This document shows, one piece after another, positions 7,047 through 39,428 of a stretch of 64,000 bases of DNA. This DNA is from Rhizobacter sp. (GTDB taxonomy: Bacteria; Pseudomonadota; Gammaproteobacteria; Burkholderiales; Burkholderiaceae_C). How positions within the stretch are numbered: position 1 is the stretch's first letter; each line of letters opens with the position of its first letter. The notes beneath the pieces are model-generated. The model was not told where the DNA came from, ran no database searches, and saw only the letters and a list, made by a program, of their open reading frames with translations. The stretch is taken from contig CP050901.1 of assembly GCA_050916095.1 (NCBI GenBank), positions 1,655,474-1,719,473 on the forward strand. Reading direction: 5' to 3'. Made by a program: the position numbers and the translations under genes.

Positions 7047-7162
7047 AAAAGTTCAGAAAAACAGTGCTGGCGGATGGCTGGCAGGAGCGTCGTTGCAAAA
7101 CGCATGTGAAGTGATGAGGCTGCGGCCTGCCGATAAAGGGGAGGGCGGCAGGTCGTGGTTAT

Positions 7163-9156: not shown

Positions 9157-9210
9157 GGTGAAGCCTCAGACAAACACAGGGCTGGCTTCACCGGAGGTGT
9201 GGCTGGCGCG
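9157..9210 (-). ncRNA. conserved 5' leader hairpin element (copy 1, tonB leader)
   Basis: RNA-sense GGUGAAGCC ... 18 nt ... GGCUUCACC-AUG. Includes a GGCUGGC direct repeat and a CACC-GGA-GGUG mini-hairpin. Nearly identical in sequence and spacing to 12561-12613. Confidence 0.4.
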
Positions 9211-11780: not shown

Positions 11781-12560
11781 TCACTTCATGACATTGGGCG
11801 GTGCAGCGGGCAATGTCGGCAGCGGGGCCAAGCCTTTGGCTTGTACCAAGGTGAGCGTGGTGACGAAACTGCTGCGGTCGTAAGCCTCCGGGCCGCTTGC
11901 GCCTTGGCGCTCGCCTGGGCCAGTGCTGTGTTTGACCTCGGCGGTGTAGGTGCCGCGCCAGGGCATGGCCACCTTGAGCTTGCCTTGGTTGTCGGCTTCG
12001 TGCTCACGCAACCAGCCTGAGCTGGTCACGAACACCACCTTGGCTTTGGGCAGGGGCTGGCCGTCGTAGAAGGCCTGTAGCTCCACACCGTCCGCACCGC
12101 TTTTGCCGGTGGGCACCAGGTCGAGTTTGAGTTGCGGCGCTTGTGGCGAAAGGTCTGTCACCAGGCGTGCGGCGGGGTGGTAAACGCTGCGCACGGTTTT
12201 GTCGCCGTCCTTGCGCTCACTCATGGGGTAGGTGGGCTCCTCCGCCACCAGGGATTCGCCGCGTGCGGCACGGCCAGAAAGCACAAAACCGGCGGCGGTT
12301 TTGTGCAAAGTCAAGGGTCGCACCCCTTGTGCTGAAACCTGGCGCGCAACCGGTTTGACGAACTTGTCGAGCAGCCCCGGCGAGGCTTCGCGCAGGTTGC
12401 CTCCGAACTCGCCAAAGTAAAGCACGGCGTTTCGGTTGTTCTGTTCGATCCAAATTTGGTGGGCTTGGGCCGAGCCGAGCGTTGTAGCCAGCATGGCAGA
12501 TAAAGCAAGGGCGCGCAGCGATGCCGTTAGCCGTGATTGCGAGGCGGTAGAGGTCAACAT
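11781..12560 (-). CDS. DUF4198 domain periplasmic protein
   Basis: Signal peptide (MLTSTASQSRLTASLRALALSAMLATTLGSAQA). Commonly encoded with TonB-dependent and PepSY iron systems. Confidence 0.7.
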   Translation of the reverse strand: MLTSTASQSRLTASLRALALSAMLATTLGSAQAHQIWIEQNNRNAVLYFGEFGGNLREASPGLLDKFVKPVARQVSAQGVRPLTLHKTAAGFVLSGRAARGESLVAEEPTYPMSERKDGDKTVRSVYHPAARLVTDLSPQAPQLKLDLVPTGKSGADGVELQAFYDGQPLPKAKVVFVTSSGWLREHEADNQGKLKVAMPWRGTYTAEVKHSTGPGERQGASGPEAYDRSSFVTTLTLVQAKGLAPLPTLPAAPPNVMK

Positions 12561-12613
12561 GGTGAAACCTTTGAATAAAGAAAAGGCTGGCTTCACGCGG
12601 GGTGTGGCTGGCG
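12561..12613 (-). ncRNA. conserved 5' leader hairpin element (copy 2, DUF4198 operon leader)
   Basis: Same architecture as 9157-9210: GUGAAGCC paired with GGUUUCAC immediately 5' of the AUG, with a compensatory G-U wobble. Confidence 0.4.
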
Positions 12614-12633
12614 GATGGAAAATTATATATACA

Positions 12634-12652
12634 AATGCGAATCATTCGCATT
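12634..12652. promoter_or_regulatory. candidate Fur box (near-palindrome) upstream of the DUF4198 operon
   Basis: AATGCGAATCATTCGCATT, a near-perfect palindrome close to the Fur consensus. Adjacent AT-rich stretch AAAATTATATATAC. Confidence 0.5.
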
Positions 12653-12706
12653 AAAATGATTGTCTCCTGTCAGCACAGACCAACTGACCGGTGTTGATGA
12701 ACCTGC

Positions 12707-12769
12707 CACCCCGCACCCCGCACCCCGCACCCCGCACCCCGCACCCCGCACCCCGCACCCCGCACCCCG
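12707..12769. repeat. heptanucleotide tandem repeat (CACCCCG)x9
   Basis: Nine perfect tandem copies counted directly, followed by a degenerate tenth. Lies in the divergent intergenic region between the DUF4198 operon and the DUF2325 gene. Confidence 0.9.
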
Positions 12770-12927
12770 CCAGCCCGCGCCAGCCAGTGCTCCTCGAAAA
12801 GGAATGCTGCCCATGCCGCGTCAGTGCCCCATCGCCCGAAACACCCGCTTTCCTTGCGCTACGCCACCACAGAATATGCGGTTGCGCTGTATTGAGTTTG
12901 CGCCCAAGCGACTTGCCGGAATGTCCC

Positions 12928-14241
12928 ATGAATGCTGGTGAAGAGGCTTCGCCAGACCGCCTCGGCGAGGTGTCGCTGCAAAGTGTGGTGAGCGCATTGC
13001 AAGCGCGTGGTGACCGCTGCTGTGCGCCCGTGGTCTCACTGCTTCCTGCCAGTCGGGCGGGTTCCCGTCGCCGTCGCCTGTGGGAGTTGAACGGTCATGC
13101 CCACTGCCCGGTGGTCGGCCTGTGCCTGCCTGTGAGTCTGGTTCGACGCTTGGTGACCAAAGCTCTGGGCCTCGCGGACGAAGACGACTATGTGTTGCAC
13201 TGTGACGCTGTCGCGGCGGCGCAGCACCGCACCTTGATCGCCGAGGCCTTGCAGCGTGAACTGGAACGGCGCCATGCGCCCCAGGTGCGATCCGTCGCCG
13301 CCCTCAAAACCCAGGATGACTTGCGGTTGTGGTGGCAAACCCAGCGCTACGAACCCGGCATTGCGGGGGCGTTGTGGGCAATTCTTACCCACCCCCGCTG
13401 CACCCCTGGCCTGGAGCGCCGCGTGCTGGCAGATGTTCACATGCAGCAACACGAGCTGGGACAAAACCTGCGCGCCCAGGGTGATCGGTTGATTGGCCTG
13501 CAAAAGGCCAATGTGGAACTGGTGCAAGAAAAAACCCAACTACAAAACCGGGTTGACGTAACCATGCGCCAACTCACCCAACAGCGTGAGACCCTGACTG
13601 CTGAACTCATGCGCCTGCGCGGCCAGTTGCTCGTCAAAGACGCCACCATCACCGGCCTGCAGGACGAATTGCGCGAGTTGCGCCGCGCGCAACCCGGCTT
13701 GCCCCAGCGCAAAGCACTGGCCGAGCAGGTGGCCAACCAGAATGAACAACTGCGTGATTTGCAGCGTGAATTACACCTGACCAAGCAAAAGATACCGGCC
13801 GCGCCCCGCTCCGCGACGGCTGCTGCCCCGGCAGCGCCGGTCGGTGAAACTGTCGCCGTACCCTTGCGATTTTTTGAGAACCGACCAGCAACGCCGACCG
13901 CGCTTGCAGCCCAAGCGGTGCTCTGCGTGGGCGGGCGTACCGGGGCAGTGCCTGCTTACAAACGCCTCGTGGAAAACATTGGCGCGCGTTTTCTGCACCA
14001 CGACGGCGGCGACGAGGACAACCCGCAGCGCCTCGCCGCCACGCTGGCTGCCGCCGACTTGGTGATCTGCCAAACCGGCTGCGTCAGTCACGATGCCTAC
14101 TGGCGCGTGAAAGACCATTGCAAACGAACCGGAACCCGCTGCGTCTTTGTGAACAACCCCAGTGCCAGCAGCTTGTTGCGTGCGCTGAAACAAGTGGCTT
14201 CAGGCAAGCACACAGAGTTTGCTCATGAACAGTCCAATTAA
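12928..14241 (+). CDS. DUF2325 domain protein with central coiled-coil
   Basis: The C-terminal region (LCVGGRTGAVPAYKRLVENIGARFLHHDGG...ICQTGCVSHDAYWRVKDHCKRTG) matches DUF2325. I trimmed the start to MNAGEEASP.... The upstream PRTPHPA translation is simply the heptamer DNA repeat read in frame. Confidence 0.7.
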   Translation: MNAGEEASPDRLGEVSLQSVVSALQARGDRCCAPVVSLLPASRAGSRRRRLWELNGHAHCPVVGLCLPVSLVRRLVTKALGLADEDDYVLHCDAVAAAQHRTLIAEALQRELERRHAPQVRSVAALKTQDDLRLWWQTQRYEPGIAGALWAILTHPRCTPGLERRVLADVHMQQHELGQNLRAQGDRLIGLQKANVELVQEKTQLQNRVDVTMRQLTQQRETLTAELMRLRGQLLVKDATITGLQDELRELRRAQPGLPQRKALAEQVANQNEQLRDLQRELHLTKQKIPAAPRSATAAAPAAPVGETVAVPLRFFENRPATPTALAAQAVLCVGGRTGAVPAYKRLVENIGARFLHHDGGDEDNPQRLAATLAAADLVICQTGCVSHDAYWRVKDHCKRTGTRCVFVNNPSASSLLRALKQVASGKHTEFAHEQSN

Positions 14242-14623: not shown

Positions 14624-14975
14624 GGCGAGCCATCGTGAAGTCCAGACCTTCGCGCCGGGGCCGAAACAAGCGCCAAGCCGAGCGAAGTGCCGCAGAACAC
14701 CGGCGCCTGGCTTGGCGGCGTGAGCGTTGGCGAGATGGGTTCACCGGTGCCGTGGTTGCCGGTGTTGTGGGGGCGATATTTTGGATTTTCCCGCCCTCAA
14801 TACCGGGTGGCGGTTGGGACGCTGGGCCTCTGGTGTCGTTTGTGTGGTGATGTGAGGGCCGCCAACGCCCGGGGCACAATCAATGGCTGCAAACTCATCC
14901 AGGAGCCCCCACCATGCAAGGCGACCCCCAAGTCATTACTGACCTTGCCTCTGTAATCCGTATCCCATAACCGAG

Positions 14976-15872
14976 TCACGAATTGGCTTGCATGGCCTGG
15001 GCCGCAAACCAGCTTTGCTCGAACTGCATCGGACTGACATAGGCCAGAGTCGAGTGCAGCCGGGCTTGGTTGTACCAAAGCAGCCAGGCCATGACCTCGT
15101 CTTTGGCTTGCCTCCTGGTTTCAAAGCGCTGCCCATGTAGGCGTTCTACCTTCAGTGACCCGAACAAGGTCTCGCTGCACGCATTGTCCCAACAGTTGCC
15201 CCGCCTGCTCATGGACGCCTGAATTCCGTACTCACTGAGCACGTCCCTGAAGTCTTGGCTTGCGTATTGACTGCCTCTGTCGCTGTGGAAGATCAGCCCT
15301 GCGCCTTTGTCTGGATGTCGCTTGAACCATGCCATGCGCAGCGCATCAATGACGATGTCGCGTGTCATGTCTTGCCGCAAGCTCCAGCCCACCACTTGAC
15401 GGCTGAAGAGGTCAATCACCACTGCCAGGTACAGCCAGCCCTCTTGGGTGTCGATGTAGGTGATGTCCCCCGCCCACACCTTGTCAGGCTCTTGAACGTT
15501 GAATTGCCGCTCCAGCAGGTTGGGTGCAATCGGCAAATCATGTTTGCTGTCGGTGGTGATCTTGAATCTGCGTTTGCCTTTGGCGCGAATGCCGTGCAAT
15601 TGCATGAGCTTTTGCACCCGGTCTTTGCCCACCCGGATGCCGCGTGCCAGCAGTTCTTTCCACATGCGAGGCCAGCCGTAGCTGGCCCTGACCTGGGCGT
15701 GAATTGCTTTGATGTGTACCAGCAAGGCGTCATCACTGAGGTGGCGTCGTTGCGCCGCACTGGCCCGCCGCAGGAAGTGCTCGTGATACCCGGCCACGCT
15801 GACACGCAGAACCCGGCACTGCACAGAGATTGGCCACACCCGCCGGTGGCTTTGTATGAAGGCGTACTTCAC
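14976..15872 (-). CDS. IS3-family transposase OrfB (DDE integrase core)
   Basis: 298 aa, rve/DDE domain. Overlaps OrfA by 4 bp, probably expressed as an OrfAB fusion by -1 frameshifting. Confidence 0.9.
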   Translation of the reverse strand: MKYAFIQSHRRVWPISVQCRVLRVSVAGYHEHFLRRASAAQRRHLSDDALLVHIKAIHAQVRASYGWPRMWKELLARGIRVGKDRVQKLMQLHGIRAKGKRRFKITTDSKHDLPIAPNLLERQFNVQEPDKVWAGDITYIDTQEGWLYLAVVIDLFSRQVVGWSLRQDMTRDIVIDALRMAWFKRHPDKGAGLIFHSDRGSQYASQDFRDVLSEYGIQASMSRRGNCWDNACSETLFGSLKVERLHGQRFETRRQAKDEVMAWLLWYNQARLHSTLAYVSPMQFEQSWFAAQAMQANS

Positions 15873-16168
15873 GTCGATCCCTTTGCAAAGTACGCCGTGG
15901 CCTTTTCCAGGATGTCGCGCTCCATCTTGACCCGCGCCAGCTCTGCCCTCAAGCGGCTGATCTCCATTTGTTCGCTGCTTACCTTGACCCGGCTGTCAGC
16001 GCCCTTGAGTTTGCCTTCGCGGTGCGCTTTGATCCAGTTGAACAGCGTCTGCTCAACCACCCCAAGCGTCCTGGCCGCTGCCGCCATGCTTTGGCCGCCT
16101 TCCACCAGCCGCACCGCCTCGAACTTGAACTCCTGCGTGTACCTCGCCCTTTTGGCTCTCTTCGTCAT
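15869..16168 (-). CDS. IS3-family transposase OrfA (HTH)
   Basis: 99 aa, MTKRAKRARYTQEFKFEAVRLV...ILEKATAYFAK, typical of IS3 OrfA. Confidence 0.9.
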   Translation of the reverse strand: MTKRAKRARYTQEFKFEAVRLVEGGQSMAAAARTLGVVEQTLFNWIKAHREGKLKGADSRVKVSSEQMEISRLRAELARVKMERDILEKATAYFAKGST

Positions 16169-17112
16169 TTCCGCTCTCCTTTGCTTGCGATTGAATCACT
16201 CAGCAAGGGATACGGTTTTCGGGGGCAAGGTCATTACCGCGCTGCAAGCGCAACTCAGAAACGAACTCACGGCCATCAACCAGTATTTCGTCCACTACCG
16301 CATGTTCAAACACTGGGGTTTTGAGAAGATTGCCAAGAAGGAGTACGAGGAGTCCATTGGCGAGATGAAACACGCCGATGCGTTGATGGAGCGCATCTTT
16401 GCGCTCGACGGTCTGCCCAATTTGCAAGACCTGGGCAAGTTGTTCATCGGTGAAACTCTGGTGGAAGCACTGCGTTGCGACCTCACCTCTGAGCAAGGGG
16501 CACAGCAAACCATCAAAGACGGTATTCATACCTGCGAGGCCGCCCGAGACTATGTGTCACGCGACCTGCTGCAAGGCATTTTGGAAGACACCGAAGAACA
16601 CATCGACTTCCTGGAAACCCAGCTCGATCTGGTAGCCAAGGTGGGTGAGCAGAACTACCTTCAGTCGCAGATGGGTTGACTTTTGATGGGTGGACTCAGT
16701 CGTCGAACGTCAGCTGAGGCACCTCCGATACCGTGACTTGCTCGCAGTGCTCGCCAGGGCTGCGATAGCTGTCACGGGGCCAGCACCCCGATGGTGTCCA
16801 GATCTTCAATGCTCTGCTCACGGCAGGAGTCTCCGGCCGACATTCAAAACAGTGAGTGCTCCGACGCGAAGCGTTGTCGAGCGACCATGTGTGGACCCGC
16901 CGCCATCACCCGGCGAGTCGCTTGGCCCAACGGCAACGCCGGAGAACATCAGGCCAAAAAGCCGCTTGTCCACAGTCCGGCCAAGGGTAAGCGTGGAAGC
17001 CGCAGGTGTAAGCGCGGCGCGCTCTTGTGCATCGCTTTGCCCTCGTGTGTCTTATAGAAGCAGTTTCTGCCGTGACAGGCGGGTTAACGATGGCCGTCAG
17101 CTTGGGCGCGGA

Positions 17113-17568: not shown

Positions 17569-17820
17569 ATGATCGTGTGCATTTGCCACCGCGTCTCCGA
17601 CCGGGACATTCACCGCGCTGTTCACGAAGGCTGCCGCAGTTTTGAAGACCTGCAAGATGAATTGCGCGTGGCCACAGGCTGTGGGGCGTGCACGCGCTGC
17701 GCAGCCCATCTTTTCGAGGCACAAGTGCAGGCCTGCTCGAAGGTTTGTTCTGCGGAAACGTCAGCCACTTGCTCGGCTGGTTTGCAATCGTCGGTGAACT
17801 TTTTGCAGGTGGCCGCATGA
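17569..17820 (+). CDS. bfd: BFD-like [2Fe-2S]-binding protein (bacterioferritin-associated ferredoxin)
   Basis: MIVCICHRVSDRDIHRAVHEGCRSFEDLQDELRVATGCGACTRCA with CxC...CxxC. RBS AAGGAG. Confidence 0.8.
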   Translation: MIVCICHRVSDRDIHRAVHEGCRSFEDLQDELRVATGCGACTRCAAHLFEAQVQACSKVCSAETSATCSAGLQSSVNFLQVAA

Positions 17821-18038
17821 ACGAAAACTCCTCGGGCGCGCCCCTGCCACAGCCCGTCCAACCGGACCAGCAGGGTGACTTTGTTTTCACCCATTCCCAC
17901 CGTAACGCAGGCCAACCCGTGCGGCGAATCACCAGCGCCCAGCTTTTTGGTACCAACCAGGAAATTGAAATCGAACACGGCGGCAGTTGTTATCGACTGC
18001 GGCAAACCGCCTTGGGAAAACTCATCATGACCAAGTAG
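17817..18038 (+). CDS. hemP: hemin uptake protein HemP
   Basis: 73 aa, ...RITSAQLFGTNQEIEIEHGGSCYRLRQTALGKLIMTK. ATGA overlap with bfd. Confidence 0.75.
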   Translation: MNENSSGAPLPQPVQPDQQGDFVFTHSHRNAGQPVRRITSAQLFGTNQEIEIEHGGSCYRLRQTALGKLIMTK

Positions 18039-19080
18039 CGCATCGTTTACTAAGCGATCACGTTTTTAAAATTTTTGGGTCTGGGCTCCCACTCGAATCG
18101 TGCTCTGGTACTGCTGTGCTGAATTCACAGCAGTGTCCATTCGCGGCGTTGTCGCAGCTTTTTCGAGCAGCGCAGATAGCACGCTGGGTTTTGACCGTCC
18201 AAGTCTCACCTCAGTGGCAAGGTGCTTCGACTTCGATGGCACGACTCGTTTTGTTGATCTCACAAGCGCTGCAGTGGCAAACGCAAACGACGTGTATCAG
18301 CGAGGTTTTTGGGTGGCCTGTATCAGCCGTGCTTTTGGCGATTTTTAGTGGCCATTTGGCGCGCCCAAATCACGCTACCGAAAAGGGTTCTAACCCGCAG
18401 AGCTTTCGGTTGGCGAGCACGGTTACCACATTGACGGGTATAGCGACCCATTGCAAACTGAAGACTCTTGCCGGACCACTGTTCCGGTCCCATCGAGGGA
18501 GAAACAGGCCGGGTTCCTGCTTCCGGTCCCAAGAAGGAAAAACAGGCGTCGCAGTCGTTACCTGCCTCAGAGAACTTTTTTAGTCTCTCCCGTGCATAGG
18601 CGCAAGCCTCTGCACCCGTTCAAAAGACGCGCTGCTGTGCACCGGCTGAGCAGCGACAGTCTCGTGCCCCCGTGGCCTCTATGCACTGCGCTTGTGCGCC
18701 GCCCGGTAAAGAAGGCCACCGTTTTTTTTTAAGCGCACCCAGCCACCGCTGCTTGCGCCGCGAATTGCAAGAGCCAGCGTCGTCACTGGCGGCTAGCTGA
18801 CAGTGACGACGCTCTAACATGGCTTTCTCCCCTGTCAAGGGCCCAATTTTTGCCCCGTGACGGGGTGAAGTGACGAGCAAATGGAAGGCCCAAGCCATCG
18901 TTGGCAACGGACGCAAAATGCCGTTGTCAAGGCTGCTGATGAGCGCCGCACAGAGCCTCGAGGTCGCAGATTATTTTGACCCCTCCCCCCACTGCGGGAA
19001 TTTTTACGCCCACCCCCAACGTCAGTGGGCCAGAGGACTCAGGCCCTGGGCTTTCAGTTTGCCTAAGAATTTTTTTAGTG

Positions 19081-37165: not shown

Positions 37166-38093
37166 CAGCCACTAACCAATGAACAGGCTCGGTCGACATT
37201 TCGTAGACATCATGGTTCTGCCTCCGTGGCTTTGAACACCCCTGGCCATTGAAGCTCTATCGAGACTCCATCTGTTCCGAATATCGTTGGGTGGTCCAAA
37301 TGTCTATATCCCAGAAGTCTTTAACGATCAGCGCGTGATTGGCGTCGAAATCAATTGCCCAATGGTAGTTCTTGACAGGCTGTTCGGGGCCGCTGAACCC
37401 GATCCGAACACAGCGTCCAACTACCTTCCATTCGTTGCATCCACGCCAGAACGTTGCGGCGTTGGTAGCATCTGGTAGCGGCAAGGACTCGTTGAACAGC
37501 CGATTGAACGTATCGACAAACTGCCGAGCTCTTGACTCGACAACTTGATCGACTGTCCAGATGTATTCGGGGGTGCCGTTCATCGCGCTACCAGCAACCG
37601 CCGCTGCATAAAGCACGACTGACTCTCGCAGTGCTGTCAATACGACCGGATCACGCGATAAAGCGGCGAGGGTCACCAAAGAGAAATCGTTGGAGTTGAC
37701 AGCACACAGGTAAGCGGCGTCCGTTATTTTTGGGATGTTCCACGCGGGAATCGTCTTCTGAAGGGCGAGTGACAACGAATCTTCCCCCCCGCTTAACAAA
37801 CAGTCCCCATCGGATGACGGTCCAAAGATGCCTGACTCGATGATTTGTTTGAGGCGCTTGTAGCCCTCTACGGCAAAAACATTTGGTTCCAGGTGCCTCG
37901 GAACGCGTTGAAGCGCTCGCATAAGACGGAAGTACTCTGTCAGCTGCTCGTCCTCAGCGTAATAGCCCTCAATGGGAACATTTGCCGGGGCAATTGCCAA
38001 CGCAGAAGCGGTCTCTTTGGCGCAGCAATGACCTTGCCCCCGAAAACCGTATCCCTTGCTGAGTGATTCAATCGCAAGCAAAGGAGAGCGGAA

Positions 38094-38393
38094 ATGACGA
38101 AGAGAGCCAAAAGGGCGAGGTACACGCAGGAGTTCAAGTTCGAGGCGGTGCGGCTGGTGGAAGGCGGGCAAAGCATGGCGGCAGCGGCCAGGACGCTTGG
38201 GGTGGTTGAGCAGACGCTGTTCAACTGGATCAAAGCGCACCGCGAAGGCAAACTCAAGGGCGCTGACAGCCGGGTCAAGGTAAGCAGCGAACAAATGGAG
38301 ATCAGCCGCTTGAGGGCAGAGCTGGCGCGGGTCAAGATGGAGCGCGACATCCTGGAAAAGGCCACGGCGTACTTTGCAAAGGGATCGACGTGA
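38094..38393 (+). CDS. IS3-family transposase OrfA
   Basis: 99 aa, identical to 15869-16168. Confidence 0.9.
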   Translation: MTKRAKRARYTQEFKFEAVRLVEGGQSMAAAARTLGVVEQTLFNWIKAHREGKLKGADSRVKVSSEQMEISRLRAELARVKMERDILEKATAYFAKGST

Positions 38394-39286
38394 AGTACGC
38401 CTTCATACAAAGCCACCGGCGGGTGTGGCCAATCTCTGTGCAGTGCCGGGTTCTGCGTGTCAGCGTGGCCGGGTATCACGAGCACTTCCTGCGGCGGGCC
38501 AGTGCGGCGCAACGACGCCACCTCAGTGATGACGCCTTGCTGGTACACATCAAAGCAATTCACGCCCAGGTCAGGGCCAGCTACGGCTGGCCTCGCATGT
38601 GGAAAGAACTGCTGGCACGCGGCATCCGGGTGGGCAAAGACCGGGTGCAAAAGCTCATGCAATTGCACGGCATTCGCGCCAAAGGCAAACGCAGATTCAA
38701 GATCACCACCGACAGCAAACATGATTTGCCGATTGCACCCAACCTGCTGGAGCGGCAATTCAACGTTCAAGAGCCTGACAAGGTGTGGGCGGGGGACATC
38801 ACCTACATCGACACCCAAGAGGGCTGGCTGTACCTGGCAGTGGTGATTGACCTCTTCAGCCGTCAAGTGGTGGGCTGGAGCTTGCGGCAAGACATGACAC
38901 GCGACATCGTCATTGATGCGCTGCGCATGGCATGGTTCAAGCGACATCCAGACAAAGGCGCAGGGCTGATCTTCCACAGCGACAGAGGCAGTCAATACGC
39001 AAGCCAAGACTTCAGGGACGTGCTCAGTGAGTACGGAATTCAGGCGTCCATGAGCAGGCGGGGCAACTGTTGGGACAATGCGTGCAGCGAGACCTTGTTC
39101 GGGTCACTGAAGGTAGAACGCCTACATGGGCAGCGCTTTGAAACCAGGCGGCAAGCCAAAGACGAGGTCATGGCCTGGCTGCTTTGGTACAACCAAGCCC
39201 GGCTGCACTCGACTCTGGCCTATGTCAGTCCGATGCAGTTCGAGCAAAGCTGGTTTGCGGCCCAGGCCATGCAAGCCAATTCGTGA
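38390..39286 (+). CDS. IS3-family transposase OrfB (DDE)
   Basis: 298 aa, identical to 14976-15872. Confidence 0.9.
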   Translation: MKYAFIQSHRRVWPISVQCRVLRVSVAGYHEHFLRRASAAQRRHLSDDALLVHIKAIHAQVRASYGWPRMWKELLARGIRVGKDRVQKLMQLHGIRAKGKRRFKITTDSKHDLPIAPNLLERQFNVQEPDKVWAGDITYIDTQEGWLYLAVVIDLFSRQVVGWSLRQDMTRDIVIDALRMAWFKRHPDKGAGLIFHSDRGSQYASQDFRDVLSEYGIQASMSRRGNCWDNACSETLFGSLKVERLHGQRFETRRQAKDEVMAWLLWYNQARLHSTLAYVSPMQFEQSWFAAQAMQANS

Positions 39287-39428
39287 CTCGGTTATGGGAT
39301 ACGGATTACAGAGGCAAGGTCACAAAGTAGCTCGTCCCGTTCGTGGTGTTTCATCGCTTCGCGATAAAACTCGTCGAGAGCAAGTAGCAGGACTCGGTTA
39401 TCTACGATTCGAGCGTGAGTGGTCATGA

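Follow-up and report, generated by a model that had tools for sequence, protein, structure and literature searches.

A 64-kb stretch of DNA (64,000 nucleotides in full; hereafter the window) holds nine perfect head-to-tail copies of the heptamer CACCCCG between two divergently oriented genes. A sequence-only reading of this DNA proposed that the array is a phase-variation switch, in which slipped-strand changes in copy number would alter the promoter spacing or the 5'-UTR length of one or both genes. The locus therefore raises two questions, namely whether the number of units differs between genomes and what such a difference could do to the flanking genes.

The array and its neighbours

Based on TRF analysis the array was the top-scoring tandem repeat of the window (score 128, period 7, 9.1 copies, 100% matches), and the nine perfect units that the sequence-only reading had counted were confirmed by reading the sequence directly. 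The same analysis found no second array with at least 4 copies of a unit of at least 4 nt in the 64-kb window. The two-unit 14-mer occurred 8 times in the window, always inside the array, compared to 0.09 occurrences expected from shuffles. To give a base rate, 642 kb of related Burkholderiales DNA and the window were searched for arrays with a period of 4-12, at least 4 copies and at least 85% matches. Three arrays passed, and among them (CACCCCG)x9 is both the longest and the sole perfect array. Of these three SSRs two were heptamers, and in another Burkholderiales MAG a (TTTTCCG)x5.9 array was located just 3' of the DUF2325 gene (L039:3239-3279). Within the window, a 38-bp unit is present in 2.1 copies at 18470-18547, 3' of hemP (78% matches, TRF score 91), and each of these units holds a GGACC..GGTCC hairpin.

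The array was indeed found to be intergenic and to lie in a divergent regulatory region with a Fur-like box nearby (Table 1), flanked on one side by the DUF4198 gene (- strand, ATG 12558-12560) and on the other side by the DUF2325 gene (+ strand, ATG 12928). An open reading frame of 516 aa that begins at GTG 12691 and ends at 14241 would turn the repeat into a (PRTPHPA)n stretch of protein. This coding reading was rejected as the homologs are too short: the best 120 DUF2325 homologs are 388-480 aa long and cover only 71-82% of the 516-aa ORF. Moreover, the 49-bp difference in the two-unit allele described below breaks the reading frame of this ORF. In view of the homolog lengths and the broken frame, the repeat-encoded N terminus is an artefact, as the sequence-only reading had already stated. 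Independent contigs encode the exact 437-aa DUF2325 product that begins with ATG 12928.

For the DUF2325 protein no matches were obtained in PDB or NCBIfam. Its N-terminal region is cysteine-rich (..CCAPVV.., ..HAHCPVVGLCLP..) and is followed by a long central coiled coil. In the literature on DUF2325 function we noted only a short Cys-rich homolog of C. jejuni, which is PerR-regulated and adjoins katA and a heme-trafficking gene (PMC9426514). The last 14 nt of an upstream ORF (uORF) also include the DUF2325 ATG, and the uORF is read in the +1 frame with respect to DUF2325. Counterparts were present at the same position and with the same 14-nt overlap in the two nearest sister species, with 42 codons in one (L001:3631-3759) and 36 codons in the other (L002:1548-1658). 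The overlap suggests translational coupling or a leader peptide. The conservation of the uORF peptide is weak, and in many other species DUF2325 follows directly, without a uORF, on the conserved element described below. On the leftward side, the gene order of the cluster is DUF4198, PepSY_TM, DUF3325, TonB, ExbB, ExbD and HemS.

Table 1. Positions of the array and of the genes, predicted sites and mobile element discussed in the text (numbering of the window)
Feature	Position	Strand	Details
Paired GCCAGC boxes before hemS	7066-7082	-	Boxes 3-9 nt apart
Paired GCCAGC boxes before tonB	9181-9207	-	Boxes split by small hairpin
DUF4198 gene	11781-12560	-	First in leftward cluster
Second HPRE-like element, DUF4198 leader	12586-12612	-	GCCAGCC-ACACCCCGCGTGAA-GCCAGC; 25 nt before ATG, split by small hairpin
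Inferred -10 box of leftward DUF4198 promoter	12622-12627	-	TATAAT, read from sequence
Predicted rightward sigma70-type promoter	12628-12657	+	TATACA-18-TAAAAT; overlaps Fur-like box
Palindromic Fur-like box	12634-12652	.	AATGCGAAT-C-ATTCGCATT; perfect 9-1-9 inverted repeat
Heptamer array (CACCCCG)x9	12707-12769	+	63 bp, nine perfect tandem units
HPRE-like element	12762-12790	+	GCAC-ccc-GCCAGC-ccgc-GCCAGC-ca-GTGC; boxes 12769-12774 and 12779-12784
Paired GCCAGC boxes before uORF-DUF2325	12769-12784	+	28 nt before uORF ATG, boxes 3-9 nt apart
uORF	12813-12941	+	42 codons; Shine-Dalgarno AGGA 12800-12803
DUF2325-domain protein gene	12928-14241	+	437 aa; Pfam PF10087, E 1e-24
IS3-family element	14940-16233		1.29 kb; orfA 15869-16168, orfB 14976-15872; rve and HTH_Tnp_1 domains
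hemP (HmuP/HemP family)	17688-18038	+	Pfam PF10636, E 1.8e-15

Copy number in near-identical genomes and in relatives

Counting units in related genomes, as the sequence-only reading had suggested, revealed that the array is polymorphic: compared to the 9 units of the window, 2 units were found in five metagenome contigs that are 99.6-99.95% identical to it. These contigs originate from JGI samples 3300044845, 3300042463, 3300042301, 3300043774 and 3300042569, and were reached through exact matches to the 437-aa DUF2325 protein, to DUF3325 and to a spurious 53-aa ORF adjoining the array, look-ups that gave 2-unit alleles only. Compared to the window, 1 SNP was found in 514 nt of their left flanks and none in 500 nt of their right flanks. 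The spacing from DUF4198 to DUF2325 is 319 nt in the 2-unit form and 368 nt in the window, a difference of 49 nt or seven heptamers (7 x 7). A sixth contig (3300059473), judged by spacing alone, has the same DUF4198-DUF2325 distance as the 2-unit contigs. One haplotype, with 2 units and the same flanking SNP, is thus common to six metagenome samples, the sixth by spacing, which may represent a single population. Among the consensus contigs of these six samples no intermediate or minor allele was seen, and only 2 and 9 units were found. A metagenome scan with a 20-mer of the left flank gave five matches, all of them unrelated chance hits, and no new alleles. Exact matches to the 516-aa extended ORF, the 259-aa DUF4198 protein and a 132-aa downstream ORF were absent from the searched collections, and the window strain itself is not in them. 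A genome scan with DUF2325 yielded no close relative (best match 51% identity), and the species is not among the GTDB representatives; the host belongs to the Burkholderiales, is uncultured and has been seen in metagenomes only. Copy number therefore differs between near-identical genomes, which is a strain-level length polymorphism and not demonstrated high-frequency switching.

Such a difference could also arise if the 9 units were an assembly or consensus artefact and not part of the real genome. Tandem repeats are error-prone in long-read consensus, and the window strain was missing from the searched collections. However, nine perfect units with clean flanks would be an atypical consensus error, assemblers are not expected to invent 49 bp of perfect repeat, and other private differences of the window strain are real, including SNPs and an IS insertion with an intact target duplication. 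An artefact is therefore considered very unlikely. Both alleles should be real, as a de Bruijn assembler given 9-unit reads would lack the k-mers that span a 2-unit junction, and the same would hold the other way round. The insertion concerned is an IS3-family element that sits after approximately codon 8 of bacterioferritin (bfr ATG 14914), with an intact 4-bp TTAC target duplication. As this bfr insertion is missing from the 2-unit contigs, the window strain has a second structural change of its own in this iron-homeostasis neighbourhood, about 2 kb from the array. A second IS3-family copy, 99.85% identical, is located at 38027-39322.

The nearest sister species carry one unit (L001, 82% protein identity) or a degenerate unit (L002, 71%). 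Measured start to start, the distance between the Fur-like box and the conserved element that follows the array is 88 nt in L001, 83 nt in L002 and 86 nt in the 2-unit allele, compared to 135 nt in the window. This spacing agrees within 5 nt across the three species, and the sequence in between is poorly conserved. As the sister species combine one unit or a degenerate unit with matching spacing, the ancestral state was probably 2-unit-like. No tandem repeat was detected upstream of DUF2325 in the loci of 80 other species. Judged from these comparisons, the 9-unit tract is a recent expansion private to the strain.

Predicted promoters, HPRE-like elements and the leader

Only one promoter-like site was found in 12400-13100, the rightward pair TATACA-18-TAAAAT, for which shuffles gave 0.1 sites. 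Its -10 hexamer is kept in the sister species as TAAACT (L001) and TACACT (L002), and the -10 box of the leftward DUF4198 promoter as TATAAT (L001) and TATACT (L002). The palindrome at 12634-12652, which we take to be a Fur box from its likeness to the Fur-box consensus, overlaps the rightward promoter. Boxes with at most 2 mismatches to it also precede DUF2325 in L001-L004, as well as in 15 of the 80 loci from other species. From the position of the hexamers we infer a rightward start site at about 12664. The array begins approximately 43 nt 3' of this site, and relative to the inferred leftward start it is about 90-150 bp upstream.

In classical SSR phase variation of the promoter-spacer type, a tract between the -35 and -10 hexamers changes the spacing between them. 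The array resembles these tracts in that it is a simple repeat between genes and changes length by slippage, but it differs in lying outside both predicted core promoters. It can therefore not alter the -35/-10 spacing of either promoter, and the promoter-spacing mechanism of the sequence-only reading was not supported. Its broader claim, that copy number would affect promoter spacing or 5'-UTR length for either gene, is narrowed to 5'-UTR length, and to the rightward uORF-DUF2325 transcript. Likewise, the proposal of a phase-variable locus retains the difference in copy number between strains and loses its mechanism at the promoters. The phase-variation switch is a hypothesis about what is, as observed, a mutable length polymorphism, and an ON/OFF promoter switch is not expected.

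The 30 nt between the array and the Shine-Dalgarno sequence are filled by an element that resembles the HemP/HmuP-responsive element (HPRE). The array directly abuts it, with the last G of the array being the first base of HPRE box 1. The sequence-only reading had seen a degenerate tenth unit here (CCAGCCCG); this is no decayed repeat, and instead corresponds to the first GCCAGC box of the conserved element. The block 12762-12790 is invariant in the window, L001 and L002. The same layout was found 20-35 nt (60 nt in one locus) before the first start codon at 18 further DUF2325 loci, where two GCCAGC boxes lie 3-9 nt apart, are usually bracketed by GCAC..GTGC and often come right after the hemP stop codon. 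The uORF starts 28 nt after box 2, as does the first start codon in other species. Paired GCCAGC boxes were present upstream of DUF2325 in 20 of 80 species, compared to 2 of 80 in a coding control. From this sequence context, DUF2325 appears to be a conserved part of the hemP/Fur neighbourhood, and an uncharacterised cysteine-rich protein family would thereby be linked to predicted Fur/HemP control. A hemP-like stop (..GKLILTK and stop codon) was observed just upstream in 26 of the loci L010-L089.

The published HPRE of C. violaceum chuR reads CCCGCAAGCCAGCCGACAGCCAGCCAGCG and is separated from the ATG by 26 nt (PMC9131926). By sequence, the element next to the array matches this class. It shares with the HPRE of Amarelle et al. 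2019, as cited in PMC9131926, the paired GCCAGC(C) boxes, the C-richness, the position 24-34 nt before a start codon and the presence of hemP, here within the window. The hemP product is a candidate trans-acting partner of the HPRE-like elements. In contrast to the HPREs described there, which are upstream of genes for TonB-dependent heme/siderophore receptors, the elements reported here precede DUF2325 (via the uORF), DUF4198, tonB and hemS, and a microsatellite is no part of the element as described there. Exact paired boxes occurred 4 times in the window, compared to 0.8 expected by chance, and all of them were sense-oriented and 24-34 nt before a start codon. The element in the DUF4198 leader contains one CACCCCG, and its GGCTGGC pair is conserved in L001 and L002. 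HPRE-like elements before four gene starts suggest, if the predicted sites are used, that the HemP regulon is wider than the heme-receptor genes. Intergenic microsatellites with strain-level length variation are a known kind; the HPRE class is seen here in new gene contexts. The similarity to HPREs concerns the sequence element, and an RNA structure is not claimed, as RNAalifold gave a weak GCAC/GUGC stem only (-3 kcal/mol). An Rfam search of 12400-13100 returned no family, apart from a chance THF-II match at E=1.

The HPRE-like element also bears on whether the array is transcribed. According to PMC9131926, HPREs act in the 5' UTRs of mRNAs. The start site would therefore have to be upstream of 12762, and with the promoter at the Fur-like box as the sole candidate the array would be transcribed. 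A promoter inside or 3' of the array was considered and rejected, since there are no hexamer matches and the 30 nt up to the Shine-Dalgarno sequence are taken by the HPRE-like element. The array thus lies in the probable transcribed 5' leader of uORF-DUF2325, with a start site that is predicted from sequence. Across 21 loci, the 30 nt upstream of box 1 contained 48% C and 18% G, compared to 35% and 34% in the background. Since this flank is C-rich across loci, the microsatellite appears to have grown out of a naturally C-rich HPRE flank.

Possible consequences of the expansion

The 9-unit tract is 63 nt long and 71% C. The best C/G ratio over 78 nt is 4.5 in the 9-unit leader and 2.0 in the 2-unit leader, and the value of 4.5 is the maximum of the 64-kb window on either strand (99.9th percentile 2.85). 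In the predicted RNA the tract is unpaired in both the MFE and the centroid structure, and the leaders are not more stably folded than shuffles (z +0.68 for 172 nt, +0.83 for 300 nt, and also +0.28). C-rich, G-poor, unstructured and untranslated RNA is the signature of a Rho loading site. The - strand reads (CGGGGTG)9, with nine GGGG runs separated by 3-nt loops. Four-layer G-quadruplexes (G4s) were predicted on this strand from 4 units upward only, which places the 2-unit allele below the limit; the G4 energies are indicative only, as RNA parameters were used on a DNA strand.

We give about an even chance to a strain-specific slippage expansion from 2 to 9 units in the 5' leader that probably dampens or tunes uORF-DUF2325, where the effect on expression would follow from position and composition. 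Replication slippage most likely made the expansion, and the repeat may have been seeded by the C-rich 5' flank (..CCGCACCCC|GCCAGC..) of the HPRE. With nine perfect units the tract would now be hypermutable, and the 2-unit form would be the stable ancestral state. The expansion would touch neither core promoter. The leader would grow from approximately 100 to approximately 149 nt, the HPRE would be 49 nt more distant from the start site and the 5' end, and a 63-nt, 71%-C unstructured RNA would be placed in the leader, opposite a DNA template strand that would be G-quadruplex-capable. The outcome may be a graded reduction or re-tuning of the rightward operon with tract length. Candidate routes would be Rho loading on the C-rich leader, a G-quadruplex roadblock on the template strand, both suggested by composition, and an altered context of the HPRE. 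What counts against this explanation is that no relative among the 80 species has a repeat here, which argues against a selected, conserved function. If the tract does change expression, SSR tuning would extend from small-genome pathogens to an environmental high-GC betaproteobacterium, and the natural pair of 2 and 9 units would allow the effects of leader length, Rho loading and template G4s in a 5' UTR to be compared.

The closest parallel to such tuning is the (ATCTTTC)n repeat of H. influenzae hmw1A/hmw2A (PMC12721329; PMC8262952), which is also a perfect heptamer tandem that varies in length between strains. There, hmw expression falls as the transcribed 5'-UTR heptamer lengthens (PMC12721329). 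As in hmw, the tract would lie 3' of the promoter and 5' of the ribosome-binding site, in the leader, if the predicted start site is used, and a graded 'volume control' would be expected rather than a frame shift. However, in hmw the repeat pairs with a G-rich arm further downstream into a long hairpin that RNase III cleaves, whereas the tract studied here was predicted to be unpaired and no such hairpin was found. Furthermore, hmw has at least 11 units and concerns an adhesin of a host-adapted pathogen, whereas most genomes here have 2 units and the gene encodes an iron-regulated cytoplasmic protein of an environmental bacterium.

The G4 heptamers GGGAATC and GGGGAYT of Xanthomonas and Nostoc (PMC4692102) provide a second comparison. 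These share a 7-nt unit with a G-tract, here GGGGTGC on the - strand, and are intergenic, with the G-rich strand antisense and less than 50 bp upstream of an ORF; their function is unproven. In our case 43 nt separate the array from the uORF ATG 12813, and it is the - strand that is G-rich. The 9-unit array shares with the G4 class of Rehm et al. 2015 at least 4 G-tracts of at least 3 G, one per unit, and also a copy number that varies from 2 upward between close relatives. In contrast, the Xanthomonas and Nostoc heptamers form abundant dispersed families, prefer 4 units and are under-represented between divergent genes (PMC4692102), whereas we found a single array within the 64-kb window, with 9 units and in a divergent intergenic region. 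G- or C-rich heptamer arrays in large GC-rich genomes vary in length with no demonstrated regulatory role (PMC4692102).

The main rival to the tuning of uORF-DUF2325 is neutrality: the tract would be a variable-number tandem repeat that arose as a by-product of slippage in a C-rich leader and has no consequence for the expression of either gene. We regard this as a real possibility, which we do not prefer. Heptameric SSRs are over-represented in large high-GC genomes of non-pathogens and differ among close relatives with no role known (PMC4692102), the expansion was seen neither in the 80 related species nor in the other sampled genomes of the species, the leaders upstream of HPREs are generally C-rich and slippage-prone (48% C compared to 18% G in 21 loci), and in the RNA folds no structure was gained or lost. 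However, the distance between the Fur-like box and the HPRE is constrained within 5 nt, and because this spacing is conserved in three species despite diverged sequence, a silent 49-nt insertion is unlikely. In addition, the tract makes the most extreme C/G skew of the window, and it adjoins an HPRE-like element that, by sequence, matches a published functional element. If the tract is neutral, it would be a useful strain-typing marker.

Frequent and reversible change in copy number is a different matter from a recent expansion. Two features of SSR contingency loci were found, a perfect tract of slippage length and a length difference between close genomes. We consider it improbable that the tract works as a contingency locus in which slippage would reversibly set the Fur/HemP-controlled operon through Rho loading or through template G4s of at least 4 units. 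If true, this would be a stochastic 'volume control' of iron and heme homeostasis outside host-adapted pathogens, and a hint that HPREs protect C-rich leaders from premature termination. The form put forward in the sequence-only reading, in which the change switches either the DUF2325 operon or DUF4198, is in our view more doubtful still. Perfect tracts of such length slip frequently, 9 units being well above the length needed, a length difference between strains was shown, and the array sits among regulatory sequences of iron and heme genes, a class that is phase-variable in some pathogens. On the other hand, the tract is not between promoter hexamers, the six samples were monomorphic at 2 units with no intermediate or minor alleles seen, no similar SSR was found elsewhere in the 64 kb, the array is not conserved in relatives, and the target is a cytoplasmic protein and not a surface structure.

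Finally, repeated heptamers may serve as binding sites, as for ToxR, which binds heptads of the sequence TTTTGAT in front of ctxAB. A set of protein-binding sites of that kind, or resembling iterons, in which copy number would set the strength of activation, is the least probable of the explanations considered. The unit does contain CCGCAC, a stretch that also belongs to the conserved sequence 5' of the HPRE, and one CACCCCG is also present inside the leftward HPRE-like element. However, the relatives and the common allele carry 1-2 units only, which argues against a conserved multi-site operator, the 7-bp period keeps the sites off one helical face, and the GCCAGC box, the defining feature of the element, is missing from the unit. 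Further HPRE-like examples upstream of DUF2325 among L010-L089 are located at L014:2931-2994, L036:2906-2964 and L046:2854-2916. In many of the leaders a short segment 3' of the HPRE can, as judged by eye, pair with the Shine-Dalgarno sequence or the AUG.
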